From the NCBI GenBank assembly GCA_039794085.1, contig JBDIWC010000007.1, forward strand, positions 32,001-96,000: a DNA stretch of 64,000 nucleotides, read 5' to 3'. The notes beneath the pieces were generated by a model. It was not told where the DNA came from and did no database searches. It worked only from the letters and a program-made list of their open reading frames with translations. The stretch's first letter is position 1, and each line of letters opens with the position of its first letter. The position numbers and the translations under genes were made by a program. Shown here piece by piece: positions 11,001 to 44,215 of this stretch. The DNA comes from Gemmatimonadales bacterium. GTDB lineage: Bacteria; Gemmatimonadota; Gemmatimonadetes; Gemmatimonadales; GWC2-71-9.

Positions 11001-12600
11001 CCTGCTGGTGGTGGGATCGGGGGCGTCCGGAGTCCACTTTGCTCTCACGGCACTGCAGCGGGGTCACCGTGTCACCATGCTGGATGTGGGCCATCCCCGC
11101 CCCGACATTCCAGCTCCCGACATCGCGTTCCCCGACCTCCCCGAGGCCCTCGACGATCCGGCGGCCTGGTTTCTCGGTCCGGGAGGGGAACAGGTGGTCT
11201 ATCCCGGTGACGCATCCTCCTACTACGGGCATCCCCCGAGCAAGGCCTACGTGTTCCGGCCGGTCCCGGGCACGCCCACCCGGTCTGACGCGATGGTACC
11301 TCTCTTCACCTTTGCGCGGGGGGGCTTCGCGGAGGCGTGGACGGCCGGATGCTACGCCTTCAGTCCGACCGACCTCACCGGCATGCCCGTCACCTCGGAG
11401 GACCTGCGACCCCACTACCAGGAGGTGGCCAGGCGGATCGGGATCGGCGGCGTGGAGGATGACCTCGCTCCGTTCATCCCCCTGGACGCGGAATACCTCC
11501 CTCCCCTTCCCCTCGATCCTCACTCGGCGCACCTGATGGCCCGGTACGCCCGCCGCCGTGCGATCCTGCACCGACGGCACCGGTTCTTTCTCGGGCGGTC
11601 CCGGGTGGCCACTCTCACCGGCGACCGGGAGGGACGCCGGGCCTGCAGCCAGCTCGGCCGGTGCCTCTGGGGCTGCCCCTCCCGCTCGATCTACACCCCG
11701 TCGCAGACCCTCGATCAGTGCGAAACCTTCCCGGGATTTCTCTATCGCCCCGGACTCCTCGTGCGGCGTTTCGAGTACGACGGGGACGGACGCATCGGCC
11801 GGGTCGTGGCGCAGCCGGTGGACGGGGGCCCGCTCCTCGCCGTCGCCACCGACGCCGTCATCCTGGCGGCCGGGGCGCTGGGTTCCTCCCGCATCGTGCT
11901 GGAATCCGTCGCCCACCGGACCGGTACTGCTCCCCGCCTCGAGGGCCTCATGGACAACCGGCAGATCCACATGCCCTTCGTGACCCCCGGGATGCTCGGC
12001 ACGGCGCCGATGCTGGCCGCCTATCAGTTTCACCACCTGGCCTTTGCGGTGACCCGGAACCCGGCAACCGACCACGTGCATGGCCAGATCACCACACTGA
12101 AGGCCGCGTCGGTGCATCCGATCCTGGCCGGGATCCCGGGCGACCTTCGATCGGCTCTCCATCTCTTCCAGGGGGTTCGCTCGAGTCTCGGCATCGCGAA
12201 CGTCAACCTGCACGATACCCGCCGGAGCACCAGTTACCTCACCCTTGATTCCGCCGGGGATGGCGCCCCCTGCCTCGTGGTGCACTACGACCCCGATCCC
12301 GAGGAACCGGCCCGCATGGCGGCGGCCACGCGCGACGTGCGGAGAGCCCTCCGACGGATCGGATCGTGGGTGCTTCCGGGCCTGGTGCGCGTCCTCCCGA
12401 TGGGGGCCAGCGTCCACTACGCGGGCACATTGCCGATGACCCTCGATCCCACGCCGCTCGCGGTCGATCGGTCCTGCCGGAGCTGGGACTTTCCCAACCT
12501 GCACGTGGTGGACGGCGCCGTCCTGCCCCGGCTCCCCGCCAAGAACCTGACATTCACGCTCATGGCCAACGCGGTCCGGGTGGCAACCACGGCGTTCTGA
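10993..12600 (+). CDS. GMC-family oxidoreductase
   Basis: VVGSGASG, CSQLGRCLWGC, LAAGALGS, HYAGT, NLHVVDG..P..PAKNLTFTLMANA. Confidence 0.85.
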   Translation: MADLLVVGSGASGVHFALTALQRGHRVTMLDVGHPRPDIPAPDIAFPDLPEALDDPAAWFLGPGGEQVVYPGDASSYYGHPPSKAYVFRPVPGTPTRSDAMVPLFTFARGGFAEAWTAGCYAFSPTDLTGMPVTSEDLRPHYQEVARRIGIGGVEDDLAPFIPLDAEYLPPLPLDPHSAHLMARYARRRAILHRRHRFFLGRSRVATLTGDREGRRACSQLGRCLWGCPSRSIYTPSQTLDQCETFPGFLYRPGLLVRRFEYDGDGRIGRVVAQPVDGGPLLAVATDAVILAAGALGSSRIVLESVAHRTGTAPRLEGLMDNRQIHMPFVTPGMLGTAPMLAAYQFHHLAFAVTRNPATDHVHGQITTLKAASVHPILAGIPGDLRSALHLFQGVRSSLGIANVNLHDTRRSTSYLTLDSAGDGAPCLVVHYDPDPEEPARMAAATRDVRRALRRIGSWVLPGLVRVLPMGASVHYAGTLPMTLDPTPLAVDRSCRSWDFPNLHVVDGAVLPRLPAKNLTFTLMANAVRVATTAF

Positions 12601-12671
12601 GGGGCAAGGTCCCGTAGAGGGGGTCGACCCGTGAGCCGCCGTGGCGCCACGCGACGCGGGAGCGATGGGAT

Positions 12672-13380
12672 CACGCGGAGATCCTCCGTGTCCTCCGTGT
12701 CCTCCGTGTCCTCCGCGGCCTCTGTGGTGCCCCCCCACGTCACCCTGGATTGCACCACAGAGGACACGGAGGACGCAGAGGGGTGACGGCATCCGCGACA
12801 CGCTCCTCGTCTCGGATTGGCGGGCATCGGCAGGAGGGGCGCCCCGCCCCCCCCACAAGGAACAAGTTCCTGATCTCGGCGCGCGAGGCGTGGAGCCACG
12901 GACATCACACGGAGATCCTCCGTGTCCTCCGCGGCCTCTGTGGTGCCCCCCACGTCACCCTGGATTGAACCACAGAGGACACGGAGGACGCAGAGGGGTG
13001 ACGATATCCCCGACACGCTCCTCGTCTCGCTGGGCGGGCATCGGCAGGATGGGGGCCCCGCCCCGGGCCCCGCCCCCCCCCCGATTCAACCACAGAGAAC
13101 ACGGAGGACGCAGAGGGGTGACGGTATCCCCGACACGTTCCCGATCTTGCGCTCCCGGCATCGGCAAGGAGGTGGCCCCACCACCCCCAACAACAAAATC
13201 CCAGTCTCGGCGCGCGAGGCGTGGAGCCACGGACATCACACGGAGACCCTCCGTGTCCTCCGTGTTCTCTGTGGTGATTCCTTCCGACCTTGCCCGATCC
13301 CATACGCCCGGGCATCGGCAGGATGGGGCCCCTCCACCCCACAACGCCAAGGCCCTATCTCAGCGCGCGAAGCGAGGAGC
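12672..13380. repeat. Cluster of ~190-bp MITE-like elements with 9-mer-periodic inverted ends
   Basis: Left end ACCACAGAG(G/A)ACACGGAGGACGCAGAG at ~12753, 12970, 13090; right end CTCCGTGTCCTCCG..CTCTGTGGT; conserved core GGCATCGGCA(G/A)GA..TCTCGGCGCGCGAGGCGTGGA; lies between convergent genes. Confidence 0.85.
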
Positions 13381-13381
13381 G

Positions 13382-13409
13382 ACTCCCTACTCCCTACTCC
13401 CTACTCCCT
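13382..13409. repeat. Heptamer tandem repeat (ACTCCCT)x4
   Basis: actccctactccctactccctactccct; contains the TAG stop of the minus-strand gene. Confidence 0.85.
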
Positions 13410-14446
13410 GCTTTCCGGCGTCCGATCACGACGCCGATTCCCATGGATCCGAAGATCAGCAGGGCCAGTGCGGTCAGACGGGCCGGACTGTTGATCGCCT
13501 CCCAGAGGCGTTCCAGCCGGGGGCGGGGCGGAGGGCGGAATTCGTGCACCTGGCGGTAGTGGTGCGGGGTGAAGTGACCCGACGACACCTCGCCGGTCGT
13601 TTCGACGCCCACGGTAAATGCCGGCCCCTCCACCTGGACGCGAAGGAAGGCATCGAACTGGGCGGCAAGGGTCCGGCTCGCCTCCCGGTCCCGCAGGATG
13701 CCAAGGCTCGGATCCCCTCCGATCGAGACCTGGTAGTAGGCGATGCCGTCCCGCTCCAGGTGGGAGAACTTGAGGGGGCCATGGTCTCCGGAAAAGACCG
13801 CACGCACGCCAGCCTCGCGCAGCAGCGGGTGAATCTCACGCCACCACGGTTCGTCGTCGCCCTGCCACCAGAGGAGGTGATGGAGGACGACCACCGTGTG
13901 GGCCGGCGCATCCGGGCGGGCCAGCTCCTCGCGAAGCCACCGCACCTGGGCCGAGTCGAGATCCACGCCGCGGATGTTCCGAGCGAGGGTGGTATCACCA
14001 TCCTCCGGAATCCACACGCTGTTGAGCAGCAGGAACCGCACGTTCCGCATCGTGAAAGAGCGGGGGAGTTCTCCGAACCGCTCCCGGTAGACGTCCCGGG
14101 TCACCAGATCGTTGATCTCATGGTTCCCCGGCACCTGGATTCGAGGCACCCCGACGGTGGCGAGAGCGCTGTCGAGGTCGACCCACTCCTTTTCCACCGC
14201 GGCCCGCCGTCGTGGCGCCTGACCCATGTCTCCCCAGATCTGATCACCCGCCAGGACCACGAGATCGGGTTGGAGGGTGCGGACCTCGGCGAGCAGTTCC
14301 CCCAGGCGGGGGTGGAGCGCGTTGTCCCATCCGCGGATGTGACCCAGAACCACAAAGGACCAGGGGTCGGCGTCCTGGGCACCCAGGGGTGCCACCGCGA
14401 GCATCGCGAGGAGAGCAGACAGCAGGCGCCGGGGAGGACGGGTCAT
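13394..14446 (-). CDS. Exported metallophosphoesterase with a C-terminal TM anchor
   Basis: Signal peptide (..APLGA-QD); calcineurin-like motifs LGHIR, LAGDQ, PGNHE, LHH, SGDHG; C-terminal TM followed by RRK. Confidence 0.8.
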   Translation of the reverse strand: MTRPPRRLLSALLAMLAVAPLGAQDADPWSFVVLGHIRGWDNALHPRLGELLAEVRTLQPDLVVLAGDQIWGDMGQAPRRRAAVEKEWVDLDSALATVGVPRIQVPGNHEINDLVTRDVYRERFGELPRSFTMRNVRFLLLNSVWIPEDGDTTLARNIRGVDLDSAQVRWLREELARPDAPAHTVVVLHHLLWWQGDDEPWWREIHPLLREAGVRAVFSGDHGPLKFSHLERDGIAYYQVSIGGDPSLGILRDREASRTLAAQFDAFLRVQVEGPAFTVGVETTGEVSSGHFTPHHYRQVHEFRPPPRPRLERLWEAINSPARLTALALLIFGSMGIGVVIGRRKAGSRE

Positions 14447-17400
14447 GGAGACTCCGGTCGAAGGGGCGGGGGCCGCTTCACGAGAAGGAGGCGATGCAGC
14501 AGCAGGTGCCCGCGTTTGAGGTCGGTGAGCCCGGTCGAGGTCTGGACCCGCTCGATGCGGTCATCGGGGATCGCGTCGAGCCGAAGGGTGCGCCAGGGTC
14601 CCGGGGGCACCGGAACCACCACCTGCTCGTACTGGGCACGGCCCGGCCGGTGGGAAAACACCACCGGCTCCCCATCACCCGACAGCGTCACCACCACCCG
14701 CTGGAGGTCGCGGCCGCCGAGATCGAGGATCAGAAGGTGTTCCTCGGTGAGGGTCCAGTCGACGTCCCGCTCCATGGCCCCCGCGCGCTGGCTCACCAGA
14801 TCGAGCAGGTCGGTGCGACGGGCCAGGCGCTCACCCTGCACCAGCCGCCATCGTTCGAGAGGGGCAAAGGACGCGCTGAAGGTCTCCTCCTCGACCGCGG
14901 GCACAGGCGGGACGGGACGCCAGTCCGGATTCCCTTCCCGCGAGACCAGCTCCGCCCCGACGATCAGGCCCAGGGCCCGATCCACCTCGGAGCGGTGGAG
15001 GCCCCCGAGGGCGAGCACCGACTCCACGGCGAGGGTATCCAGGGGACCCGGCAGGATCACGCCGGAGACCGAGTCGAGTGAGAAAGGCAGCAATCCCGTG
15101 ATTTCGACTCCGAGGACGCGGGGCCATCCGCCGCTCCCGTAGCGCCAGTTCTTTCGTTGGAGTACGAGTCCGGACCCATTGTCGAGAAGCCGGTTCCAGA
15201 GCAGCAGAGGGGTGGAGCGGTCCTTCACCTCGATGCCGCGGAAACCGCTCTCGATCGTGTTGGCCACCACCACCGGGGCGCTGGCCTCCCCGACGGAGAT
15301 CCCCTTGTCTCCCGACCCCCGGAACGTGTTCCCGGCGATCAAGGGCGAGGAGCCCATCAGGTCGATGGCATCGCCTCCACTCCCGAGAAAGCGGGAGTCG
15401 ACGATGGCCCCGGTGGACATGTCGTAATCGATCGCATCCGAATTGGCGTTCACCAGGTCGCTCCGGACCACCCGGGCCTCGCCCATCAGAACATGGAGGA
15501 GGTCATCCGACCGGACATTGTCGGCGAACCGGCTGTCCTCGAAGCCCACATTCCGGGCCGCGTGGACGTTGATCGCCCCGATGTACTCCACGCCGTCCAC
15601 GAGGGCCCCCCCGCCGCCCTCCACCTGCAGGAACCGGAACCGGCTCCCGCTGGCTCCCCGTCCCTGCAGGGCAATCGTACCCCACGGTCTCGCCGGATCG
15701 AGACGGAGCACCCGGATGGGCCGGTCCGCCGTTCCATTGGCCAGAATCGGGGCCCGGCTCACGAGGGAGACCTCGGGACCGAGCCGGATCGTGGTCCCGG
15801 GCTCGATCCGGAGGGTATCGCCGGGGGGGAGCCGCAGGGTTTCGGTGAGCCGGATATCCCCCGACCAGCGCCGGGGAGTGGAGGTCGGAACCGGAAACTC
15901 CCAGGGGCTGAAGGAGGTCCCGGGTTCGATGAGGGACCCCATCGCCCATTCCCGAGGTTCCACCGGGGTTCCGGTGATCCGGTTCTGCAGCACCGGGATG
16001 AGGTGCCGCGCACCGGCTCCCTCGACAAAGATTCGATAGTGGACCCGGCCCGCGGCAATCCCCCGCTCCGGGGTGCTCCACCCCGGAAGAAGGGCGACCG
16101 GGGTGCGCGCCAGGAAACTCCACCCCGCGCCGTCCCGCTCCCACCGTCCGGCGACTCGCCGGTCCGAACGATCGAGCACTCCATTGCGATCAGTGTCCAG
16201 AACCACGTCTCCCGGCGGTGCGCCGGCGGCGAGGCGAAGGGACACGAGGTCCGCCCCGGTCATTCCCCTGCTCTCGACATCGAGCAGGGCCAGCGACCCC
16301 GCGGATCCGCCGGCCACCACCATGTGCACATCTCCGATCCAGCGATCGAGGACCGCGAGGTTGTGGTGCAGCAGGGTGCGCGAGGAGTCCACCGATCCCA
16401 CCGGCGGAATCACCCCGGCCCGCAGAGTCTCGAAGCGGAGGTAGGGGTGGAAGCGCGCGGTCACCCCGTCGAGAATCGAGTCGGCGTGACTCGCCAGCCC
16501 CGCCTGCATCGCGTCATGCGTCCGGCGCATCGCGGCGTCCACCAGGAACGGATCGCGCAGGGCCTGCTGCCAGAACTCGTTCACGCCGATGCTCGGCCGT
16601 TCCAGGTCGAGGAGCCGAAGGTCCCACGGAAGGGGAGAGAGCAGGTTGTCGGTGGGGTCCTGGTACCAGAACTGGTTGTGGACATCATCCATGTGATAGG
16701 GGTCGCCCACCACGAGCAGGGCCGCCAGGAGCGCGCCGAGGTGGGCGGTGTCCACCACGGCCATGAGATCCCGGTGTTGGTCCGCCGTCGTTCCGCGGAG
16801 CCGTTCCAGCAGATCGAGGATCCGGGTGGGGGGGGGACCGGAGGGTCGGTCGTTCAGGGCCACCCGGTCCCAGATGTACGGATTGCGGAAGAGACTCCGG
16901 GGGAGCCCCTTGTAATACTCGCTCCGTTCCGCGGCGTCGCCGCGATAGATGTTCCCGGGCATCCGTCCCTGGAGGCGGAGCATCGATTCGTCAGCGATCT
17001 CGATCATCCGGTACAACCCGGCAAAGCGCTGGTTCACGAAGACCGGCACGATCTCCTGGCGCGACCCGGGAAGTCCGAAGGTCTGGGCCACCTGCGCCGC
17101 CAGATATTGGGGCACCACGTCCTTCACCGAGAATCCCAGGGTGCGGTATCCGCGCTGGAGGGATTCCCGGGGGGTCCGCAACGTGAAACTGACCTTGGGG
17201 CTCAGCCAGTGGATGCTGTTGTCACCGCGTTTGCGCAACCGAACCCGATCGAGCCGTCCCTGATGCACCACCGTGGCGTCGGTCCAGGCATCGAATCCCT
17301 CCTGCGGGTTGCCGGCCAGGGCGCGCCAGTCGGCGGCGGGGAGAACGAGAGTGAGCACCGCGGGATCATCCTCGTCCGCCTCGAGGTCGCGATCGATGCG

Positions 17401-17643
17401 CACCAGCGACAGGGTGTTCCTCATGACGGAGGCCCGGGCCCGGAACTCTCCCGACAGGCTGCGGGAACGGGACCAGAAATCGTCGAAGTGCAGGGCCGTC
17501 GCATAGGACGCCACGGATTGCAACAGGAGGTAGGCCCCGGCCGTGACGGGAAGCGCGGACGCGAGCACCACGTCGATGAGCCGGAGCCTCCGCCACCACG
17601 GGGCCCGGCTCCCGGGAAGCCCCCGGCGAGGAAAGCGGCTCAC
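14443..17643 (-). CDS. CotH-family kinase fused to a right-handed beta-helix
   Basis: N-terminal TM; RKRGDNS, GLYRMIEIADE, HNQFWY, PLPWDL (CotH-like); C-terminal parallel beta-helix repeats DAIDYDMS, DAIDLMGS, DKGISVGEAS. Confidence 0.8.
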   Translation of the reverse strand: MSRFPRRGLPGSRAPWWRRLRLIDVVLASALPVTAGAYLLLQSVASYATALHFDDFWSRSRSLSGEFRARASVMRNTLSLVRIDRDLEADEDDPAVLTLVLPAADWRALAGNPQEGFDAWTDATVVHQGRLDRVRLRKRGDNSIHWLSPKVSFTLRTPRESLQRGYRTLGFSVKDVVPQYLAAQVAQTFGLPGSRQEIVPVFVNQRFAGLYRMIEIADESMLRLQGRMPGNIYRGDAAERSEYYKGLPRSLFRNPYIWDRVALNDRPSGPPPTRILDLLERLRGTTADQHRDLMAVVDTAHLGALLAALLVVGDPYHMDDVHNQFWYQDPTDNLLSPLPWDLRLLDLERPSIGVNEFWQQALRDPFLVDAAMRRTHDAMQAGLASHADSILDGVTARFHPYLRFETLRAGVIPPVGSVDSSRTLLHHNLAVLDRWIGDVHMVVAGGSAGSLALLDVESRGMTGADLVSLRLAAGAPPGDVVLDTDRNGVLDRSDRRVAGRWERDGAGWSFLARTPVALLPGWSTPERGIAAGRVHYRIFVEGAGARHLIPVLQNRITGTPVEPREWAMGSLIEPGTSFSPWEFPVPTSTPRRWSGDIRLTETLRLPPGDTLRIEPGTTIRLGPEVSLVSRAPILANGTADRPIRVLRLDPARPWGTIALQGRGASGSRFRFLQVEGGGGALVDGVEYIGAINVHAARNVGFEDSRFADNVRSDDLLHVLMGEARVVRSDLVNANSDAIDYDMSTGAIVDSRFLGSGGDAIDLMGSSPLIAGNTFRGSGDKGISVGEASAPVVVANTIESGFRGIEVKDRSTPLLLWNRLLDNGSGLVLQRKNWRYGSGGWPRVLGVEITGLLPFSLDSVSGVILPGPLDTLAVESVLALGGLHRSEVDRALGLIVGAELVSREGNPDWRPVPPVPAVEEETFSASFAPLERWRLVQGERLARRTDLLDLVSQRAGAMERDVDWTLTEEHLLILDLGGRDLQRVVVTLSGDGEPVVFSHRPGRAQYEQVVVPVPPGPWRTLRLDAIPDDRIERVQTSTGLTDLKRGHLLLHRLLLVKRPPPLRPESP

Positions 17644-18731
17644 CCGGGGACCTCGATGCGGTCGGCCACCGTCTGGTCCGGTACCACCACCACCCGGGCG
17701 GCGGACCGACGCGGGCCGTCGGGGTCGAGCCGGTTGCGGTAACTCGTCTCCACCATCGTCCAGGTCTCCTCGTCCACCGGCCGCCGGATCCGGACTTGGA
17801 AGCGGAGACGGACGCCGTCCGACGTCCCGGCCGGGACGGGCACCACCACCTCGGTTCCGGGACTGCCCGGCCCGGCGACCACGGGATCCCCCGTGGACCC
17901 TCGGGTGGTCACCGGTCCGGGAACGCCAGCCCGGAGCGGCAGATCCACCCGCACGTTCCGGATGTCGAGGGGAAATCCGGCCGTCCCCAGACGCACCGAC
18001 GAGGAGTCGGGGAAACTCCCGGTGAGGGTCACCTCATGCCAGACCCCATCCACCGGCACCACCGACCAGGTGGTACTCGTCCCGACATGCACGGCGAGGG
18101 CGAGATACTGTTGTGCCTCGAGGAAGGATTCCCACCGGGTGATCACCTCGGCGAAGGCACCGCGATCGAAATCATAGCGGAGCACCCCACGCAACGAGGG
18201 GAGATGGGTCGGGTGAATCTCCAGCACCCGGGCAAAGGCGTCTCTCGCCTCCACCGGAATGGTCCAGGTGCCCTCCAGGCGCTCCCACGCGGCGCCGAGT
18301 TCGTAGCTGTTGCGATAGTTCCGGGGGTCGTACGCCTGCGCGGCCTGGTAGGCCAGGAGGGCCCGGTTGGGGCGTCCCTGGGCCTCATAGGTGCGGGCCA
18401 GCGTGTGGAGGAGTCGCTCCCGTTCGGTGTCCCGTCGTCCGCGCGCCGTGCGGGCCGGGAAGCGGCGATCGAGGTCGAGGAGATGCGCCTCGGCCTCGTC
18501 GAGCCGACCCTCCGCCAGGAGAAGCTCCCCTCGGTCCACCGCGCGGACCCACCCCGTCTCCCGGTCCCGCAGGAGGCGCTCCACCCGCCAGAAGACCCGG
18601 TCGCGGAGGGGCGGAAGCACCAGGAGGGCGAGTCCGAGAGCCAGGAGCGCCACCCAGGCCGTGAGAAAGCGGCGTTCGTGCCGGTAGTAGAAGGTCCGCA
18701 CCGGGGAGGACTCGCCGGGATGGTTCATCAC
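17640..18731 (-). CDS. Membrane-anchored TPR protein with a C-terminal beta-rich domain
   Basis: N-terminal TM; TPR-like helices LARTYEAQG..ALLAYQAAQAYDP, ARDAFARVLEIHP. Confidence 0.7.
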   Translation of the reverse strand: MMNHPGESSPVRTFYYRHERRFLTAWVALLALGLALLVLPPLRDRVFWRVERLLRDRETGWVRAVDRGELLLAEGRLDEAEAHLLDLDRRFPARTARGRRDTERERLLHTLARTYEAQGRPNRALLAYQAAQAYDPRNYRNSYELGAAWERLEGTWTIPVEARDAFARVLEIHPTHLPSLRGVLRYDFDRGAFAEVITRWESFLEAQQYLALAVHVGTSTTWSVVPVDGVWHEVTLTGSFPDSSSVRLGTAGFPLDIRNVRVDLPLRAGVPGPVTTRGSTGDPVVAGPGSPGTEVVVPVPAGTSDGVRLRFQVRIRRPVDEETWTMVETSYRNRLDPDGPRRSAARVVVVPDQTVADRIEVPG

Positions 18732-19426
18732 ACGTTGATGTTTTCCTGGCCGACGAGAATGGCCACCTTGTGATTCCTCACCAACGGCCGGAGATCGTCG
18801 AGGAGGGTGGCCTCCGAGACCCGCGGCCTGAGCTCCACCGAGTACACGAGTTCCACCACGTCGCCCTCACCCAGGGTCTCCACGCTCAAGAGCGAGGCCT
18901 CGCGCAGATGGCGGTGGAACACCTCGGTGAAGACCGTGTGATAGTCGAGGTCGGAGGGGAGGTGCACCTTGAGGAGGGCCTCGCGACTGGTCGCCGCCCC
19001 GATCTCGAACCGGCTCAGAGTGTAGATCATCCCCCCCATCGCCAGGGCAAAGATGACGGCGGTGAGGTAGAACCCGGTGCCGGTGGCCATCCCGACGGCC
19101 ATGGCCACGAAGATGAAGGCCACGTCCCGGCTGTCCTTGACCGCATTCCGGAAGCGAATGATCGAGAGGGCCCCGACCAGGGTGAACGCCCGCGCAATGT
19201 TGCTTCCGATCACGAGCATGATAAGGGAGATGGTGACCCCCATGATGATCATGGCATGCACGAACGACACCGAGTAGGAGAGCCCGCGGTGGGAGATCCG
19301 GTACACGTACGCCAGGAGCAGGTTGAGCACGAAGCTCAACCCGAGGGCCACCACGGTTTCCCAGACGCCAAATCCCCCGACCTGCGAGGCGCCCGACGTC
19401 AACTGTCTGATGAATTCGTCCACCAC
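18728..19426 (-). CDS. DUF4956 domain membrane protein
   Basis: IGSNIARAFTLVGALSIIRFRNAVKDSRDVAFIF..MAVGMATG; soluble C-terminal domain; AGGAGG RBS. Confidence 0.9.
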   Translation of the reverse strand: MVDEFIRQLTSGASQVGGFGVWETVVALGLSFVLNLLLAYVYRISHRGLSYSVSFVHAMIIMGVTISLIMLVIGSNIARAFTLVGALSIIRFRNAVKDSRDVAFIFVAMAVGMATGTGFYLTAVIFALAMGGMIYTLSRFEIGAATSREALLKVHLPSDLDYHTVFTEVFHRHLREASLLSVETLGEGDVVELVYSVELRPRVSEATLLDDLRPLVRNHKVAILVGQENINV

Positions 19427-19442
19427 GCCTCCTGACAGGAGT

Positions 19443-20153
19443 TCAGGTGAGTGCGCCGCCGTACACGGCTCGATCCACGGCGGAGCAGTACTTGGACATG
19501 CGCACCATCGGTAGCCCGAGCCGGGCGATCGACTTGGTGAGCCAGAGCGGCGCCCCTCCGGTGAACTTCACTTCCATGACCGCGGTGCGGGGATCGAGCA
19601 CCGCGGCCCCGGTGTCGAAGGGGGTGACCAGATCGAACCCGGTCGTCCGGTACTGGATGCGGGTATCGAAGTTGACCCGCAGTGCCGGCTCGTAACGCCC
19701 CATGAAGGCTCGCCGCCGATACCGGATCGCGCACCGGGGCGCCAGGTTGTGACGCCGAAAGAGGGTCCAGGCCTCCCGCATCACCGGATCGGTCACATCG
19801 TCACCCGGGTGCGTTACGAACCGTTCCCGGGCCTCCGCCACCGACATCCGCAATCGGCGCTTCTGCTGGGTCCGGTCCACCCGCTGCTTGATCTCCAGAA
19901 AGAGTTCCTCGCTCCCCACATAGCGCCGGAGACGCACCTTGCGCCGGACCATGAGGCCCTCGACCTTTTCCCAGAAGAGGGAGTACTCGGGGGAATCCCA
20001 GTAGACGCTGTAGACCGCATACCCCCACTCCGGATCCCCGTGCTCATCGGCCGTGAGGTACTCGCCGAGCGCGGCCCGGATGGCCGAGACCTCCCGCGCC
20101 GCCACGAGATACTTGAGCTCATAGCGGTTCCGGGTGTCGGTCAGATGTGGCAT
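19443..20153 (-). CDS. VTC-domain (polyphosphate polymerase, CYTH/TTM superfamily) protein
   Basis: RYELKY, YSVYWDS, RRKVRLRRY, LEIKQR, YRRRAF, RVNFD, MEVKF, MSKYC. Confidence 0.9.
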   Translation of the reverse strand: MPHLTDTRNRYELKYLVAAREVSAIRAALGEYLTADEHGDPEWGYAVYSVYWDSPEYSLFWEKVEGLMVRRKVRLRRYVGSEELFLEIKQRVDRTQQKRRLRMSVAEARERFVTHPGDDVTDPVMREAWTLFRRHNLAPRCAIRYRRRAFMGRYEPALRVNFDTRIQYRTTGFDLVTPFDTGAAVLDPRTAVMEVKFTGGAPLWLTKSIARLGLPMVRMSKYCSAVDRAVYGGALT

Positions 20154-20185
20154 GGCACCGCTCCCTGTCGGAACGTGCTCTGCAT

Positions 20186-20201
20186 CGCAAGTCCCATGCC
20201 C
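20186..20201 (-). promoter_or_regulatory. Putative sigma54 -24/-12 promoter of the VTC operon
   Basis: Minus strand GGGCATGGGACTTGCG = GG-N10-GC with TTGC, 33 bp upstream of ATG 20153. Confidence 0.6.
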
Positions 20202-20210
20202 TCCGGGACC

Positions 20211-21632
20211 TCACACAGTCTGGGCTCCGCGCCCAGTGCGCACCAGGCGCAGTCCTCCCCCCGGAGCCAGCGCGAGCAGGTAGACCAGTGCTCCCGTGGG
20301 CACGCCGATCCACAGCGGAAGAGGAACCGCCCAGAGGACGAGGGCCATGACCCCGGCGGCGAGTGCGGCGTGCCATCCCGCCGACACAATCCGGGCCTCG
20401 TACCCTTCACGGTGGGCGCTCCGCAGCACCAGGGCTGTCCGCACCAGTTCGGTTCCGAGGGTGGCACCGGCCGCCCCGAGGAGTCCCCACCGGGGGATGA
20501 GGAGGACATTGAGGACAAGGTTGACCGCGACGCCCCGAACCGAGGCCGCAAGCACCAGCGGATGGCGGTCTGAGGCGACCAGCCCCGCCTGTCCCACGTT
20601 GCGGAGGAGGGAGATCGGCAGGGAGAGGAGCAGCAGACCGAGGGCGGGGCCGCCACGCAGATACTCGGGCCCGTACAGAGTCTGCAGGAGGGACCCGGTC
20701 ACCAGCACGCCCCCCACCGCCACGGGAATCCCGAGCGCCAGCACCTGCCGTACTCCGAGTTGGAAAGCGCTCCGATCCACTCGTCCCTCCCCGTGAGATC
20801 GGGCCAGGGTGGGGAGAAGGCTGTGATAGTACGTGACCCCGATGTTCAGGAAGAAACTGACCGGGGCGTAGACCGCCACATACACGCCCACCGCCGCCGT
20901 CCCGTGAAAGCCCCTCAGGAAGAGCACATCGGCGTTGAACATGACGAGACCGAGCAGGGCATGGAGGGCCAGGGGACGTGCCGACCGGAGAACGGGGAGG
21001 GCCCGGTTCCACCATCCTCGCCAGCGGATCGGACCGATCACACCGGCGAGCCCGATGCCGAGCGAGGCGGCCCCCGCACCCTCCGCCGCCAGCTGAAGCA
21101 AGGGCACCCGGGTCAGATCGGCGCCTCGGCGCACCAGCAGCAACACCAGGAGGAGAAAGAGGCCGTCCGCGAGGATCCGGGCCCCGGCGGCGCTCCGGGC
21201 CCGCCCCAGCCCCAGGCAGGCCCAGCGCAGGTTCAGAGCCAGGGGAATCAGGGTCAGGGAGATCAGGGCCAGGATGGTCCCATCGGGGGCCGGCAGGAGG
21301 AGAATTCCTCCGAGCGATGTCACACCAATCAGGGCGAGAGCCAGCACCACCCGGGCGATGATCAGGGCGGGAGCGGTGTGTTGGAGGAAGGTCGGGTCCA
21401 GCGCCACTCGTCGCACGCCGACCGAATCGAGTCCGCCTTCGACCAGCACCACGAGATAGAGACGGACCGTGAGGGCGAAACCGATGACGCCGAACCCTTC
21501 GGCGCCGAGGGTCCGGGCCAGCACGATGGTGGCGACAAATCCGAGAATCCGTGCCGCCACTTCCCCCGAGGCGAGCACGGAAAAAAGCCGCCCCGGGGAG
21601 GGTCCTGGGGCGGAGGCACTCGGAGAGGTCAG
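20211..21632 (-). CDS. Wzx-type oligosaccharide flippase (start uncertain)
   Basis: LARTLGAEGFG, DVLFL..AVGVY, NLVLNVLLIPRWGLLGAA; an in-frame CTG overlaps the upstream TGA. Confidence 0.85.
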   Translation of the reverse strand: MTSPSASAPGPSPGRLFSVLASGEVAARILGFVATIVLARTLGAEGFGVIGFALTVRLYLVVLVEGGLDSVGVRRVALDPTFLQHTAPALIIARVVLALALIGVTSLGGILLLPAPDGTILALISLTLIPLALNLRWACLGLGRARSAAGARILADGLFLLLVLLLVRRGADLTRVPLLQLAAEGAGAASLGIGLAGVIGPIRWRGWWNRALPVLRSARPLALHALLGLVMFNADVLFLRGFHGTAAVGVYVAVYAPVSFFLNIGVTYYHSLLPTLARSHGEGRVDRSAFQLGVRQVLALGIPVAVGGVLVTGSLLQTLYGPEYLRGGPALGLLLLSLPISLLRNVGQAGLVASDRHPLVLAASVRGVAVNLVLNVLLIPRWGLLGAAGATLGTELVRTALVLRSAHREGYEARIVSAGWHAALAAGVMALVLWAVPLPLWIGVPTGALVYLLALAPGGGLRLVRTGRGAQTV

Positions 21633-21925
21633 AGCCGGTACTCGGTCAGCTTGTTGTAGACCGTCCCGATGACTCGGCCGAAGCCGTACCCCACCACGAA
21701 TCCGTACACCGCTCCGATGAGGCTCCCGGGAAAGGACACCGAATACCCGGGGAAGAAGACGGCCAGAAGCTGGAGATGCTGCCCGGCATCGGGCCCCCCG
21801 CTCCAGACCAGAAAATTGGTCGCCAGGAAGAGGACACCCGCGCACACCAACCCGAAGGCGACACCCCAGGCCCGCCCGTTGAGCCGTTGAATGACCGCGG
21901 CCACTTCGGCTTGTTCCGTCGTCAT
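21629..21925 (-). CDS. Small 2-TM hypothetical membrane protein
   Basis: HLQLLAVFFPGYSVSFPGSLIG; paralog of the adjacent gene. Confidence 0.75.
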   Translation of the reverse strand: MTTEQAEVAAVIQRLNGRAWGVAFGLVCAGVLFLATNFLVWSGGPDAGQHLQLLAVFFPGYSVSFPGSLIGAVYGFVVGYGFGRVIGTVYNKLTEYRL

Positions 21926-21964: not shown

Positions 21965-22354
21965 TCAGATGTGGTCAAGAAAATCACGAGTCCGGGCCAG
22001 CTCGGCTCGGGTCCGAATGAGGAACACCTGGGTGGCGATCACGACGTTCCGGATGAAGGCCAGGAACCATCCCGCCACGGCCCCGACCACGAATCCCCAC
22101 CCGAATCCGATGAGCGCTCCGGTCCAGGAGACGGAGTAGCCGGCAAAGTAGGCCCCGAGCAGGTCGAGGGAGAACGTCGGGTCCGTGGGCACTCCGCCCC
22201 CCTCCACGAGGAGATCGATCACGGTCAGAAGGAGAATAAGGGCACCCGTGGCCGCGCCGACGGCGATGCCGAACCGGCGCTTGTGCAGGGGAGCGAAGGC
22301 GAAGGCGATCGCCTCCAGCGCGGGGGCGTCCGAAGCGGGGCGGGCTGGTGTCAT
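21965..22354 (-). CDS. Small 2-TM hypothetical membrane protein
   Basis: SLDLLGAYFAGYSVSWTGALIG; GAGGAG RBS. Confidence 0.75.
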   Translation of the reverse strand: MTPARPASDAPALEAIAFAFAPLHKRRFGIAVGAATGALILLLTVIDLLVEGGGVPTDPTFSLDLLGAYFAGYSVSWTGALIGFGWGFVVGAVAGWFLAFIRNVVIATQVFLIRTRAELARTRDFLDHI

Positions 22355-24296: not shown

Positions 24297-25280
24297 TTAC
24301 CTGCCGGCTCCGGTGACGTGGAGGGTCCGCTGATCGGCCACGACATCCGCGATGATCTGCTCCAGGGAGGTCCGGGGACGGTATCCCACCACCCGTTCCA
24401 GCTTTCTCACATCGGGCACCCGTCGCTGCATGTCCTCGAAGCCGGCCGCGTACGCCTCCGCATAGGGGATGAGGCGGATCTCGGACCGGCTCTCCGCCGC
24501 GGCCCTCACCATCTCCGCCAGCTGGAGCATCGTGACCTCGCGGTCCGACCCCACGTTGAAGACCTCGCCGACCGCTCCGGGCGTTCCGATGAGCCGCAGC
24601 GTTGCCTCCACCGCATCCTGCACATGGCCAAAGCAGCGCGACTGGGTCCCGTCTCCATAGACCGTGATCGGCTCGCCCCGAACCGCCTGGGCGGCGAAGG
24701 TCGGAAGCACCATGCCATAGCGTCCGGTCTGCCGGGGTCCCACCGTGTTGAAGAAACGGGTGACAATCACCGGAACCTGTTTCTCGCGCCAATAGGCGAG
24801 CGCCAGCCACTCATCGAGCGCCTTGGAGCAGGCATAGGCCCACCGGGAGTGGGTGGTGGGGCCGAGGGTCAGGTCGTCCTCCTCGCGGAAGGGAATCCGC
24901 AGACCCTTCCCGTACACCTCCGACGTCGAGGCGACCACCACGAGCTTCCCCTTCTTGGCCGCGGCACCCAACACCACCTCGGTGGCGCGCACGTTGGTCT
25001 CGATGGTGTGCACCGGACGCTCGACGATGAGGCGCACCCCCACGGCCGCCGCGAGGTGGACCGTGACATCGCACCGGTCCACCAGTTCCGCCACCAACGG
25101 AACGTCCGTGGCCGACCCGATCCGATACTCGAATCCCGGGCGCCCGACACAGCCGGCGATATTGTCCATGCTCCCCGTCGAGAGATCGTCGAGAACGAGA
25201 ACCTGGTCCCCGCGGGCCAGCAACCGCTCCGCGAGATGACTTCCGATGAATCCGGCTCCGCCGGTCACGCACACCTTCAT
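24297..25280 (-). CDS. NAD-dependent nucleotide-sugar epimerase/dehydratase (extended SDR)
   Basis: TGGAGFIGSH, STSEVYG, YACSK, RFFNTVGPRQ. Confidence 0.92.
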   Translation of the reverse strand: MKVCVTGGAGFIGSHLAERLLARGDQVLVLDDLSTGSMDNIAGCVGRPGFEYRIGSATDVPLVAELVDRCDVTVHLAAAVGVRLIVERPVHTIETNVRATEVVLGAAAKKGKLVVVASTSEVYGKGLRIPFREEDDLTLGPTTHSRWAYACSKALDEWLALAYWREKQVPVIVTRFFNTVGPRQTGRYGMVLPTFAAQAVRGEPITVYGDGTQSRCFGHVQDAVEATLRLIGTPGAVGEVFNVGSDREVTMLQLAEMVRAAAESRSEIRLIPYAEAYAAGFEDMQRRVPDVRKLERVVGYRPRTSLEQIIADVVADQRTLHVTGAGR

Positions 25281-26524
25281 CCAGCCTCCTGACGGCGCGC
25301 CCGCCGGGCCGCGGCGCGCGCCACAATGTCGAGATACTGCGGAATCACGGCGGCCTCCGACCAGTGGGTCAGGAAGGCCTCCCGCGCAGAAACGGCCCGC
25401 CGTTCCCGGTGCCCGGGATCGGCCTGGAGCCGGTGCAGAGCGGCGCGAAGCTCCTCCGGCGTGTCGAACAACTCTCCCCCCCCGGCTCGCTCCACGATCT
25501 CCGGAAAGGGGCCGAACCGGCGCGCCACCACGGGGACCCCCTGCCGGAACGCCTCGATCAGGATGATCCCGAAGGTTTCATAACAGACCGAGGGCACAAT
25601 CAGTGCCACCGCGTGACGATAGATGCGGGAGAGCGTCTCGGGGTCGACCCGTCCCAGGAACCGGACCTGGGGCATCCCCTCCGCCAGCTGGCGGAGGTCG
25701 GGGGCGTACTCGCCGTCTCCCGCGACCAGCAGGTCGGCATCGGGGTAGTCCCGGAAGAGGGGGATGACGTCCTGAAGCCCCTTGATCCGCTCCAGTCGGC
25801 CCACAAAGAGGAAATACGGGCGGTGATGCACAGCGGGGGACCGGTCCCCCGAGTCCGGTTCCCCTCCCTCATCAGGGAGGAAATACGGCAAGACCTCCAT
25901 CGGACGGGGAAAGCCGAATTCGGCGTGCTTCCGCCGGCTGAACTCGCTCATGGCGATGAAGGTGTCCACCTGATCCAACGCCCGCTCGAGAGTGCCGAGG
26001 CGTCGCCACCACTGCGGGGGTCTCCGATAGCTCAGTTGACAGCGAATGCAGGCACGCTCGGGACACGGCTCCCGCCCGAATCGCCACAGCACGTGCGTGG
26101 GGCAGACGAGCCAATGTTCGTGCGCCATGTACAGCTTGACCCCTCGGCCGTACCGGAAGAGCCCGGGCCCTCCCACCAGGGAGACATTGTGATAGTTGAT
26201 CACGTCGAAACGGCCCTGGTCGAGAATCCGGCGGATGCGGGCCCCGGTCAGCACCGGGCGGCCGAATTGCTGGGTGAGCAGCGGGGAGAGGGTGCCGAAA
26301 CCGCTCCGCAGCGGGATCACGTCGAGTCCCGGGGTCGGTCCCGGGCTCTCCGGGAGGGGGCCTGGATGGAGGGCCGCGAAGGCATCGACGTCGTGGATCA
26401 CGGTCACATGATGGCCGGCGCGGACCAGCCCTAAGGCCAGTCGCTCGACTCCGATCGCGTCCCCCCCGAAGTGGTAGGGGGGATAGAAGGTGGTCAGGAA
26501 GGCGAAGCGAAGAGACTCGGTCAT
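25277..26524 (-). CDS. GT4 glycosyltransferase
   Basis: TTFYPP..GG, FVGRLERIKG, ETFGIILIEA; ATG at 26524 overlaps the upstream TGA; forms the C-terminal part of the 1319-aa ORF. Confidence 0.88.
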   Translation of the reverse strand: MTESLRFAFLTTFYPPYHFGGDAIGVERLALGLVRAGHHVTVIHDVDAFAALHPGPLPESPGPTPGLDVIPLRSGFGTLSPLLTQQFGRPVLTGARIRRILDQGRFDVINYHNVSLVGGPGLFRYGRGVKLYMAHEHWLVCPTHVLWRFGREPCPERACIRCQLSYRRPPQWWRRLGTLERALDQVDTFIAMSEFSRRKHAEFGFPRPMEVLPYFLPDEGGEPDSGDRSPAVHHRPYFLFVGRLERIKGLQDVIPLFRDYPDADLLVAGDGEYAPDLRQLAEGMPQVRFLGRVDPETLSRIYRHAVALIVPSVCYETFGIILIEAFRQGVPVVARRFGPFPEIVERAGGGELFDTPEELRAALHRLQADPGHRERRAVSAREAFLTHWSEAAVIPQYLDIVARAAARRARRQEAG

Positions 26525-27687
26525 GCCCGCGCCGCTTCCCGGATCGCCCCGAGGGTGGCAGCCGCCGTCCGGTCCCACGAGAGGGCTCGCGCCCGGATCA
26601 ACGCCACGCTCGCCAGGGCCTCTCTTTCCTCCGGGTGGTCCACCAGCGTTCGGATCGCCTCGGTAAGGGCGGTTCGGTCCCCCGGGCGGACCCAGATTCC
26701 CCCACCGTCCAGGAGTTGGGGGAGCGGGCTCTCCGTGGTGGCCACAACAGGGGTGGCGCAGGCGGCGGCCTCGACGGCCGGGAGGCCAAACCCTTCCGCC
26801 TCGGAGGGGAGGATGCACGCCACAGCACCGGTGTAGAGGTGACGCAACTCTTCGTCGGGCACGAACCCGGTCCAATGAACCAGCGGACCGGTCCCGAGGG
26901 TCACGATCGACCGGAGGAGAGACTCCCGGTGCTCGTGGAACACGTCGCTCCCGACCGAGCCGACCAACAGCAGGTGCACGGGTGTGGCCCTCGTCACTGC
27001 GGCGTGGGCCTCGAGGAGGACATCGAGTCGCTTGTGGGGATTGAACCCTCCGACATAGATGATCCAGGGAGTTCCGGCCGGCACCCCTGCTGCCGCACCC
27101 GCCCGGCGGACCTCCTCGGCGGGCGAGGGAGTGAAGACCGGGGCCGGGGCTTCCGGGGCCACTCGAAGGCGATCCCGGCGGACGCCGAGCACCCGGACCA
27201 GATCCTCCGCGGCGAAGTCGGAGACGGTCAGGACCCGGGTGGCCTGGGCGAGGGCGAGGCGCACCTTGAGGGTCCAGAAGAGGCGGGCCCGGCGCCCGGG
27301 GATGGTGAGTTCGGGAAACCGTTCCACGATGGCGTCGTGGATGGTGACCACGGAGGGAAGCCCGAGAGGGAGGGGAAACCAGGTGTAGACTGTCGGCGCG
27401 AAGAAGACATCGAGGCGGGCCCGGGCCACGGCCCGGTGCATCCGGAAAAGATCGCGGGGCGACCGGTAACCCTCCGCTGACGCGGCACGGGTCGGTGCGG
27501 CCTGCAGCGGGACCTCGCGCACCTGGACGCCCGGCAAACCGGGAAAGTCCCGCCGGGACTCGGCATCGAGGAAGCAGACGAACTCCTCTCCCGGGGCGGT
27601 CCGCACCAGGCCGGGGAGCACCTGACGAAGGAAACGTCCGTACCCCCGCCCGTTGGCCCAGGAGGTGGCGTCGATCCCGATCCGCAT
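26521..27687 (-). CDS. GT4 glycosyltransferase
   Basis: MRIGIDA..RGYGR, VTIHDA, GGFNPHK, EGFGLPAVEA. Confidence 0.9.
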   Translation of the reverse strand: MRIGIDATSWANGRGYGRFLRQVLPGLVRTAPGEEFVCFLDAESRRDFPGLPGVQVREVPLQAAPTRAASAEGYRSPRDLFRMHRAVARARLDVFFAPTVYTWFPLPLGLPSVVTIHDAIVERFPELTIPGRRARLFWTLKVRLALAQATRVLTVSDFAAEDLVRVLGVRRDRLRVAPEAPAPVFTPSPAEEVRRAGAAAGVPAGTPWIIYVGGFNPHKRLDVLLEAHAAVTRATPVHLLLVGSVGSDVFHEHRESLLRSIVTLGTGPLVHWTGFVPDEELRHLYTGAVACILPSEAEGFGLPAVEAAACATPVVATTESPLPQLLDGGGIWVRPGDRTALTEAIRTLVDHPEEREALASVALIRARALSWDRTAAATLGAIREAARA

Positions 27688-27693
27688 CGGGCG

Positions 27694-29188
27694 TCAGGGC
27701 GACGCGGGAACGAGGGGGGGGGGGGGCGGGCCGGTCGAGGCGCTGCTCCTCGTGATACTCGAAGTCGGTGTTGACCTCCCAGACGTCGTGGGCGGCGCCG
27801 AACATGTTCCAGACGGCCATCATCGCCGTGAGCATCGAGTGGTCCTGGTTGTTGTACTTGTGCATCCCGTTCCGGCCCACGGTGTGCAGGTTGGGAATCG
27901 GATCGATGAACCCGCGGATGGTGTCGAGATGTCCGCGATACGCGGCGTCATAAATCGGATAGGCCTTGGGCATGCGGATCACGGTGCCGTCTCTCACCCG
28001 GGAAGCGGTGGCGATGCCCAACGCATCGAGTTCCCGGGTGGCAAGCGCCACAAGGTCGGCATCGGAGGTGGTCCAGAGGCCGTCTCCCTCGAAGCAGAAG
28101 TACTCCATGCCGAGACAGGTCATCCCCGGTTCCGGAATCATGGCCCGGCTCCAGTTGTTGAAGTTCTGGATCCGCCCCACCTGGACTCCCGGGGTGTGGA
28201 TGTAGATCCAGTTGTCGGGGAAGAGATTGTCCCCTTCGAGCATGAGAGCCACCACCAGGAAGTCCCGGTAGCCGAGCCCCCGGGCCGCGGCCTGCACCGG
28301 GGCGGGCACGGCGGGCGCGAAGGAGTGTACCAGCTCCCGCACCGGCATGGTGGAAATCACATGGCGCGCCGGGAAGAGTTGTTCCCCGCCCTCCGCGTTC
28401 CGGGCCCGGACTCCCGTCACCCGTCCCTCCTCCAGTTCGAGGGCGGTGACCGGGTGCCGGAGGAGAACCGGGTTCCCCATCTCCACGATCCGGTCCCGGC
28501 AGGTCTCCCACATCTGCCCCGGACCGAGTCGGGGGTACTGGAACTCATGAATCAACGTCTTGATCGCCGTGCTACGCCGGTTGAGCGAGGTGGCAGAGAG
28601 GATCGCCCGGGCGAGCGAGAGCCCCTGGATCCGCTGGGCCGCCCACTCCGCCCGGATCTCGGTGCAGGGCATGCCCCAGACCTTCTCGGTGTAGGTCTTG
28701 AAGAAGATCTCGAAGAGCCGCTTCCCGAACCGATTGGTGACCCACTGTTCGAAGTTTTCCTCCACCGGGTGGGGACGCCAGTGCCAGCGGAGGTAGCTCA
28801 GCACCATCCGCACGGCCTCGATCACGCCGAGCCCTCGAAGCGCGTTGCCGGCCTTGAGGGGATAGTCGAAATACTTCCCATCGTAGAGAATCCGGGACAT
28901 GCGCGGCACGGAGATGAACTCGTCCCCCAGAATCTCGTTCCAGAGGTTGAGCACCGGAGTGATCTTGGTGAAGAAGCGATGCCCCCCGATATCGAAGCGG
29001 TATCCCTTGTATCGCGCGGTGCGGGAGATGCCTCCGACCATGTCGTCGGCCTCGAGCACGGTGACGGGATATCCGTCGCGGGACAGGAGATAGGCTGCGG
29101 TGAGCCCCGCAGGACCCGCACCGACCACCACGACCGGATCTCCCGGCCGGATCGGATCGACTTCCCGTGGATGCGTCGTGATTCCCAT
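27694..29188 (-). CDS. FAD-dependent oxidoreductase (HemY/Glf-like); natural stop displaced by a C13 tract
   Basis: VGAGPAGL, DIGGHRFF, FPDNWIY, AYPIY, GRNGMHKYNNQDHSM; with one fewer C it ends LVPASP-TGA at 27696-27694. Confidence 0.85.
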
Positions 29189-29199
29189 TCCTGTCCCCT

Positions 29200-43958: not shown

Positions 43959-44016
43959 GGGCGGTCCGTGGACCGTCATTGATCGCGGGATCACCGTTGC
44001 AGGGGCGGTCCGTGGA

Positions 44017-44191
44017 CCGTCATTGCGAGGGCCCGCAGGGCCCGTGGCAATCTCGTGAACCGGTGCCGGCCCTGAATGACGCCCCGTCGGCCATCACGCC
44101 GGAACCGCATCGGGTTGCCGGTCAGACCCGGGCGACGCATGCGTCGCCCCTACGGGATCGCCACGGCGGCATGCGCCGCCTCGCGATGACA
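44017..44191. repeat. ~175-bp composite element, copy 2
   Basis: Direct repeat of 41395-41568; preceded by two (T/C)AGGGGCGGTCCGTGGACCGTC hairpins at ~43955 and ~43999. Confidence 0.9.
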
Positions 44192-44215
44192 CCCCTCCAC
44201 CCATATCTTGCAGCC

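Follow-up and report, generated by a model that had tools for sequence, protein, structure and literature searches.

We analyzed a stretch of 64,000 nucleotides (the window) from a Gemmatimonadales bacterium (assembly GCA_039794085.1, contig JBDIWC010000007.1), focusing on a cassette of five genes. These encode a VTC-family protein, a DUF4956 membrane protein, a tetratricopeptide repeat (TPR) protein, a protein that joins a CotH kinase fold to a right-handed beta-helix, and a phosphoesterase (Table 1). The original prediction described five co-oriented genes with a 16-bp gap and three 4-bp overlaps, and the re-derived open reading frames (ORFs) and Pfam families bear this out: the gap separates the VTC and DUF4956 genes, and the overlaps join the rest. 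The source genome is 94.7% complete and carries a single copy of the cassette.

Table 1. Position of the cassette genes and associated features in the window.
Feature	Position	Strand	Description
VTC gene	19443-20153	minus	236 amino acids; VTC PF09359, E 5.9e-38
DUF4956 gene	18728-19426	minus	232 amino acids; DUF4956, E 6.6e-15
TPR gene	17640-18731	minus	363 amino acids
CotH/beta-helix gene	14443-17643	minus	1066 amino acids; CotH, E 1e-6 (residues 179-342); Beta_helix, E 4.7e-10 (724-831)
Phosphoesterase gene	13394-14446	minus	350 amino acids; Metallophos, E 2.5e-10
CotH kinase-fold core	16609-17286	minus	residues ~120-345: R137-x-R139-G140, K150, E215, G313-D-P-Y-H317-x-D319-x-x-H322-N323, PWD341
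Right-handed beta-helix	15034-15891	minus	residues ~585-870
Predicted sigma54-type -24/-12 site, GGCA-N6-TTGC	20187-20200	minus	47 nt upstream of the VTC start
Wzx/MOP-family flippase gene	20211-21845	minus	true start probably later; Pfam match from residue 88

The close relatives of the cassette belong to Gemmatimonadales, and the related loci come mostly from Gemmatimonadota. The full five-gene set was found in the same order in 21 of 33 related loci, including one with a split CotH gene and one with a gap of N. As for the remaining loci, one lacks the VTC gene only (at a contig end), seven end after CotH, three after TPR and one after VTC, mostly at contig ends. Three loci truly depart from the set: in L006 and L009 other genes follow TPR, and in L041 the phosphoesterase gene does not adjoin the cassette. 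Because the 33 loci include kin and at least one duplicate (L042 equals L028), these counts are not independent. The distribution of the cassette in the phylum is patchy: VTC was matched in 15 of 301 genomes, and nine of these 15 matches belong to this cassette. The module is real, conserved and linked to glycan genes, and it is a variant of a VTC/DUF4956/CotH triad that is in print but unexplained. In an otherwise intact cassette, the CotH/beta-helix gene is apparently split into ORFs of 306 and 578 amino acids (L038:5673-8329). A TPR-CotH fusion of 1545 amino acids in L027 was rejected as an artefact of a run of N.

The triad has published relatives. In Gram-positive pel loci, genes for CotH, a polyphosphate polymerase, DUF4956 and DUF4832 adjoin the pel genes, and Whitfield et al. 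suggested that Pel synthesis is regulated by protein phosphorylation (10.1101/768473). The triad is also listed in Clostridium perfringens (PMC2879425). A Streptococcus intermedius study reports no such synteny outside pel loci (PMC12345266), and the loci described here contradict that. The pel accessory set shares with the cassette the same three families beside a surface-polysaccharide locus; the three accessory genes are co-transcribed, and their CotH is predicted to be secreted. In contrast, the host here is diderm, the locus is of the Wzx/GT-C type, and the cassette is not contiguous with pelDEAFG; neither a Pel family nor DUF4832 was found among the 61 window ORFs scanned. In addition, the CotH domain is fused to a beta-helix rather than to FN3, and the cassette adds the TPR protein, the phosphoesterase and a conserved sigma54-type site. 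The literature search covered main texts, with most subscription papers outside it, and found no function for the triad and no five-gene form. The core triad is already in print, and the TPR and phosphoesterase partners, the promoter and the flippase link are in no paper that we found.

The cassette lies among glycan genes. A flippase-family gene is directly upstream, and glycosyltransferase genes (GT2, GT4 and GT-C), deacetylase and epimerase genes occur across the window. GT-C, UbiA-family and flippase-like genes are the kind used in periplasmic glycan decoration (PMC11127046), and the window has all of them. When references derived from the window genes were used, 25 of 31 cassette loci had a glycan gene in the fetched flanks; the VTC-less DUF4956 loci (0 of 23) and the other VTC loci (0 of 5) had none. 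The flippase is the most constant neighbor, matched in 21 of the 31. Among 20 hand-picked long loci of the distant CotH/beta-helix family, in which 113 of 179 neighboring ORFs were scanned, 14 carry a glycosyltransferase, Wzx, Wzy or Wzz, one AlgX, two sulfotransferases only, and three none. The earlier placement of the cassette in a glycan locus was confirmed, and its association with such loci holds within the phylum and in distant relatives. In 9 of 31 loci (L007, L010, L014, L019-L021, L025, L027 and L040), sulfate-activation genes (cysD, cysNC and cysQ-cysC) closely precede the cassette, and ATP sulfurylase or sulfotransferases occur near 3 of the 20 distant loci (L083, L124 and L132); the target glycan may be sulfated as well. 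Two small paralogous membrane genes in the window (21629-21925 and 21965-22354) show weak holin_4 matches. Because their homologues recur in five related glycan loci, they are probably membrane proteins of the glycan pathway rather than phage holins.

Upstream of the VTC gene, the original prediction placed a sigma54-type promoter belonging to the cassette. The site is real and rpoN was found in the source genome, but the strict sigma54 consensus is missed. It is one of seven relaxed matches in the window and one of 94 in the genome, where such matches occur at a rate of about 0.002 per 200 nt of one strand. Of 29 related loci, 19 have a sigma54-type site no more than 200 nt upstream of VTC, 18 of them in the GGCA-N6-TTGC form. 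Since this frequency is set against a chance rate of about 0.002, we conclude that the predicted site is under selection. Between 12600 and 22500, no sigma70-type promoter was found, nor any terminator beyond chance.

The VTC protein is soluble and stand-alone; it matches the VTC family only and has neither an SPX domain nor a hydrophobic segment. A single-sequence search of the PDB with this protein gave nothing, but profile searches did match, and a profile of 33 VTC homologues covers the entire catalytic domain of Vtc4 (E 3.9e-19). All nine catalytic residues of Vtc4 are kept: K14, R74, R76, K89, Y145, R147, E194, S220 and K221 correspond to K200, R264, R266, K281, Y359, R361, E426, S457 and K458. 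In Vtc4, the nine residues bind metal and triphosphate, and K458 is absent from the inactive Vtc2 and Vtc3 (10.1101/2023.01.27.525886). The likeness to the yeast VTC complex (Vtc4/Vtc3/Vtc1; PDB 3g3q, 8i6v and 7ytj) comprises the TTM catalytic domain, these residues and a membrane partner encoded adjacent. The cassette protein differs by lacking SPX and fused membrane helices and by a Glu in place of T198; its membrane partner resembles MgtC and carries an ACT domain, and the matches listed for DUF4956 include no Vtc1-like one. Judged from its residues, the VTC protein likely makes polyphosphate (polyP) from adenosine triphosphate (ATP).

The model of the DUF4956 inner-membrane protein (pLDDT 71.7) shows five helices in the membrane region (21-139), followed by an ACT-like domain at the C-terminus (149-225). 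In structure searches it retrieves ACT folds, the C-terminal domains of MgtC (Z 8.3-8.4) among them, and the NCBIfam MgtC/SapB family matches weakly (E 8e-4, 19 bits, below its cut-off of 214). The two families share a helical membrane part followed by an ACT-like domain; besides the low score, DUF4956 differs by its own RFR-x4-D-x2-D motif, whose RFR (91-93), at the cytoplasmic end of helix 3, is present in 108 of 110 DUF4956 sequences. No VTC membrane subunit was among the listed structural matches of the model (Foldseek, VIA), where the ACT domain filled the lists, so that nothing is excluded. The DUF4956 profile matched no PDB sequence, and the predicted complex of three DUF4956 chains with VTC scored low (score 0.14, mark 0.32).

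In the 301 genomes of the phylum, DUF4956 was found in 134 and PPK1 in 254. The neighbor comparison used 150 of 166 DUF4956 rows and 149 of 315 PPK1 rows (one row dropped). Among these listed rows, DUF4956 lies within 10 kb of VTC in 14 of 150 and of PPK1 in 42 of 150 (40 genomes), and within 10 kb of both in none. From the side of the polymerases, a listed DUF4956 row lies within 10 kb of 14 of 15 VTC rows, and for the 15th DUF4956 is at the contig end; DUF4956 stands upstream on the same strand within 10 kb of 39 of the 64 best PPK1 rows, against 1 of the 85 other listed PPK1 rows. In eight genomes of three genera, DUF4956 and PPK1 form a single open frame, and Pfam confirmed a full PPK1 behind DUF4956 in all four fusions tested (L044:5830-8634, L045:5957-8725, L047:5641-8427 and L048:6035-8809). 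Two loci (L050 and L054) have the order secreted CotH-like gene, DUF4956, CYTH-PPK1, which represents the same three roles with another polymerase. DUF4956 pairs with VTC or PPK1, and fusions with PPK1 exist as well; two unrelated polymerases thus link the family to polyP, and this genomic link is strong. A tie of the cassette itself to polyP metabolism is probable.

Other DUF4956 loci were also recorded. In L044, the genes for a second plain PPK1, a His-phosphatase and CHAD are convergent with the fusion. The source genome holds three further DUF4956 genes without VTC, one of them with no evident partner. Another heads a run (L031:4800-13538) that continues with an SdiA/phytase-like propeller, a phosphoesterase lipoprotein and an Omp85-like protein of 829 amino acids and closes with a CYTH-PPK1 fusion, the only PPK1 match in that genome. 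The third (L030:4545-8458) is directly upstream of a secreted CotH-like gene of 345 amino acids with canonical GNxD and PYDFD, and the unit is divergent from an alkaline-phosphatase-family gene. In L033:5012-9509, a Cthe_2159 beta-helix, an HlyD adaptor, VTC and DUF4956 occur together with no CotH match.

The CotH/beta-helix protein has an N-terminal anchor (22-40). In 15 of 16 homologues, Lys/Arg residues are more abundant on the N side of this anchor, an N-in orientation by charge, and the domains are predicted to be periplasmic; here and below, anchors were judged by hydropathy and charge alone and not by a topology predictor. The model reached a pLDDT of 75.9 and a pTM of 0.55, with a poorly resolved kinase N-lobe. 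The CotH fold is supported by PF08757 above its cut-off and by PDB 5jd9, the sole PDB profile match (E 6.8e-7) and the top Foldseek match (E 1.5e-9). In the 136 of 150 representatives that cover the catalytic loop, the metal-binding Asn (N323) is kept in 136 and the PWD Asp (D341) in 133. The loop reads G-D-P-Y-H317-M-D319-D-V-H-N323 in the cassette protein and N-F-D-G-F-V-H-N in 5jd9. Relative to the Asn, His is found at -6 in 129 of 136, Asp at -4 in 79 and Asp at -5, the position of Bacillus subtilis D228, in none. H317 need not be a plain replacement of the catalytic Asp, as H317-x-D319 can align equally to the N-x-D of Bacillus cereus. Because of this alignment, the cassette clade, which keeps H-x-D319 in 16 of 16, possibly retains a catalytic base. 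Either D319 would be a shifted base lost by much of the family or H317 would be catalytic, and both would set the family apart from Bacillus CotH. The likeness to Bacillus CotH (PDB 5jd9/5jda) consists of the fold, the R-G motif, and an Asn and a PWD Asp that stand 18 residues apart in both; the differences are the membrane anchor, 700 extra residues with a beta-helix, a loop of H-x-D-x3-N against N-x-D-x4-N, and an Asp that is dispensable in the family.

The beta-helix carries an invariant set of residues (D714, D736, D739, D741, D758, D761, D779, K780, E786, K807, D808 and K831). Each of these is found in no fewer than 119 of 120 distant relatives, suggesting a binding or catalytic groove lined with cations. 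Its nearest structures are the mannuronan epimerases AlgG and AlgE (4nk6 and 2pyg): AlgG 4nk6 is the best match (Z 28.0, root-mean-square deviation 1.9, 262 aligned), and AlgE6 gave Z 25.9. AlgG is periplasmic and acts on an acidic polymer. The beta-helix here has 15% identity to these enzymes and is fused to a kinase fold, and the likeness is one of fold. Profile comparison of the beta-helix with Cthe_2159 revealed no similarity, and a profile of short secreted CotH-like proteins had no significant match to the window CotH protein or to Omp85-fused proteins. The original prediction of a CotH kinase aimed by a beta-helix is upheld as to the fold and the predicted extracytoplasmic location, but the loop is non-standard and the beta-helix may be an enzyme, not merely an aiming device.

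The CotH/beta-helix family comprises at least 2,226 proteins. A separate count gave 2,149 clusters at 50% identity (E no higher than 1e-30), some of them matched by the beta-helix alone. In 80 metagenome loci of the distant family, which contain near-duplicates (L064 equals L036), DUF4956 is adjacent in 60, VTC in 47 and phosphoesterase in 22, in shuffled order; VTC or DUF4956 is present in 34 of the 45 loci of at least 8 kb. In two loci (L083:7911-17791 and L124:3308-13175), a pair of differing CotH/beta-helix cassettes lies in tandem, and each cassette has a VTC and a DUF4956 gene of its own. This arrangement suggests that VTC and DUF4956 are dedicated to their own CotH/beta-helix partner.

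The TPR protein contains a helix (22-40), TPRs at about 65-200 and an unassigned C-terminal part. It was seen only in the five-gene variant and in 0 of the 80 distant loci. In the phosphoesterase, an N-terminal hydrophobic stretch is present in 114 and a C-terminal helix in 117 of 120 homologues (at least 222 were found), and the window copy has its anchor at 324-342; it is predicted to be a type I membrane protein with a signal-like N-terminus and its domain outside the cytoplasm. The original prediction regarded the kinase, the TPR protein and the phosphoesterase as membrane-tethered. Hydropathy indicates anchors in all three, but the charge pattern supports the orientation of the TPR anchor weakly (14 of 23).

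In the standard two-metal calcineurin-like site, motif I is DxH and motif V is GHxH. The cassette phosphoesterase keeps motifs II-IV (GD, GNH and H), has G-H36-x-R38 for motif I (HxR in 109 of 120) and G-D221-x-G-P for motif V (DxGP in 114 of 120). Two distant cassette members share both exchanges, to His and to Asp, and lack the Arg. Compared with purple acid phosphatase and other calcineurin-like phosphoesterases (1qhw), it shares the GD, GNH and His motifs and the fold family, and differs by the exchange of Asp for His in motif I and of His for Asp in motif V and by its C-terminal membrane anchor. Since two standard metal motifs are lost, the role of eraser once assigned to this protein is a guess. 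Look-alike clusters occur in Planctomycetota, Bacteroidota and Thermodesulfobacteriota.

As the best single mechanism, we tentatively propose that polyP made by the VTC protein is exported via DUF4956 and used as phosphate donor for a surface glycan. The cytoplasmic VTC protein would likely make polyP from ATP at the inner membrane; DUF4956 would likely dock it and may pass polyP to the periplasm, where the anchored CotH/beta-helix protein would use it to place phosphate on the glycan built by the neighboring genes. The groove of the beta-helix would hold the acidic polymer via bound cations and lysines, and the transfer site would be His317 with Asn323 and Asp341, possibly via phosphohistidine. 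Scaffolding of the complex would fall to the TPR protein, and the phosphoesterase would either shorten leftover chains or take phosphate off again. In favor of this model are the nine kept Vtc4 residues, the pairing of DUF4956 with VTC or PPK1 and its fusion to PPK1, the recurring neighbors of the distant family, the glycan genes in the flanks and the nearness of the beta-helix to AlgG. Gene content, order and coupling, the conserved residues, the folds and the neighborhood are observed, and topology, promoter use, the activities, transport and the substrate are inferred. A fuller version is doubtful, in which a periplasmic CotH-fold enzyme of the His type draws on a split polyP synthase-translocase and phosphorylates the surface glycan without ATP or a lipid donor, the system has its own scaffold, trimmer and sigma54 control, and PPK1 can take the place of VTC as the polyP source in related cassettes.

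Several observations weigh against polyP export and transfer to a glycan. In the VTC protein, E12 stands at the T198 position of Vtc4 and resembles the ExExK motif of hydrolytic TTM enzymes (PMC9582702). The isolated yeast Vtc4 domain is slow, and translocation needs basic channel residues (PMC9911596). DUF4956, with its five helices and ACT domain, resembles MgtC and has no family-wide basic residue inside the membrane; R79, the single intramembrane Arg, is present in 25 of 25 sequences of the cassette clade and in no sequence of two other groups (0 of 57 and 0 of 23). Because R79 is clade-specific, a Vtc1-like basic pore is unsupported; the split polymerase/translocator of the original prediction thus retains the nine Vtc4 residues and the PPK1 pairing and fusion in its favor, but not the pore. 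DUF4956 is near neither polymerase in 94 of 150 listed rows, a count inflated by fragmented contigs and unlisted rows. In a quick tree, the PPK1-linked, VTC-less DUF4956 proteins branch together as a clade of their own (support 96), so the fusion informs the DUF4956 family and not the cassette protein. In 120 distant relatives of 860 amino acids, the loop Asp is missing from 109 and the His is kept in 117. Bacillus CotH phosphorylates proteins (Ser/Thr) from ATP (PMC7821199). Two cassettes (L022 and L023) lie among housekeeping genes. In S. intermedius, all deletion mutants of SIR_1592-1594 still aggregate and make Pel; the DUF4956 and CotH mutants lost more than half of aggregation in sputum medium and made more and less Pel, respectively, and no defect is reported for the VTC polymerase mutant (PMC12345266).

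The DUF4956 protein could instead be an MgtC-like scaffold or sensor, not a channel, coupling cytoplasmic polyP or triphosphate turnover to an outside enzyme that uses another donor, such as exported ATP or lipid pyrophosphate; the latter is the phosphate donor for LpxT. We consider this somewhat unlikely. It agrees with the MgtC/SapB match and the MgtC-like ACT domain, with the presence of DUF4956 in 134 genomes against 15 for VTC, and with the many VTC-less DUF4956 copies that adjoin a secreted CotH-like gene. The VTC deletion without a reported phenotype (PMC12345266) and the normal use of lipid-linked donors in periplasmic glycan decoration (PMC11127046) point the same way. However, the fusion to PPK1 and the pairing of DUF4956 with one or the other of two polymerases point to polymer handling itself, and the kept nucleotide-site residues of the kinase fold are compatible with either donor.

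Exported polyP may itself be the product, with the beta-helix and the His-type kinase fold binding, anchoring or attaching the chain to the surface glycan as a polyanionic, cation-binding coat and the phosphoesterase setting its length. Conservation is higher in the Asp/Lys ladder of the beta-helix than at the catalytic Asp of the kinase fold, another VTC/DUF4956 locus (L033) combines an acidic Cthe_2159 beta-helix and an HlyD adaptor with no CotH match, and the remodeled metal site with its added Arg suits a polyanion; calcineurin-like endopolyphosphatases of the yeast vacuole offer a precedent. Nevertheless, this is distinctly unlikely: the conservation of R139-G140, K150, E215, N323 and D341 suggests catalysis, and no gene for outer-membrane exit was found in the cassette. 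It is improbable that the beta-helix is an AlgG-like glycan lyase or epimerase regulated by the CotH fold as a nucleotide- or polyP-sensing pseudokinase. In its favor, the beta-helix comes structurally closest to AlgG, AlgE and lyases, and 0 of 136 representatives have Asp at the B. cereus position and just 79 have Asp319. Against it, a shared beta-helix fold shows no function (many unrelated matches reach Z 22-26), and the cassette clade has H-x-D319 throughout. Finally, phosphorylation by the CotH domain of periplasmic or surface proteins that the TPR protein recruits, regulating glycan assembly, is in line with the Ser/Thr kinase activity of Bacillus CotH (PMC7821199), the Pel proposal of Whitfield et al. 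(10.1101/768473) and the TPR partner, but is highly improbable, as TPR is absent from the 80 distant loci, whereas the beta-helix is always fused.

ATP is scarce outside the cytoplasm, and the cassette, if polyP export and transfer are true, would let the cell phosphorylate surface sugars there. It bears on bacterial polymer phosphorylation outside the cytoplasm and on the route of polyP to the cell surface. The cassette is a small, complete and testable part set: a candidate polymerase whose catalytic residues are intact, a membrane protein linked to two unrelated polyP enzymes, and an enzyme outside that has a defined, unusual active site. Given the size of the CotH/beta-helix family, a single assay would serve to annotate many genes, and DUF4956 would gain a function.

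Further features of the window were noted. Between the converging genes for a GMC oxidoreductase and the cassette phosphoesterase (12600-13393) lies a palindromic array resembling repetitive extragenic palindromic sequences and bacterial interspersed mosaic elements (REP/BIME-like), with relatives at 38 loci on 25 contigs of the source genome. Two window ORFs are apparent fusions, with starts as called: one (25277-29236) joins a PRK07208-type flavin adenine dinucleotide (FAD) oxidoreductase to a GT4 domain, and the other (42722-45757) joins an unassigned N-terminal half to a flippase.

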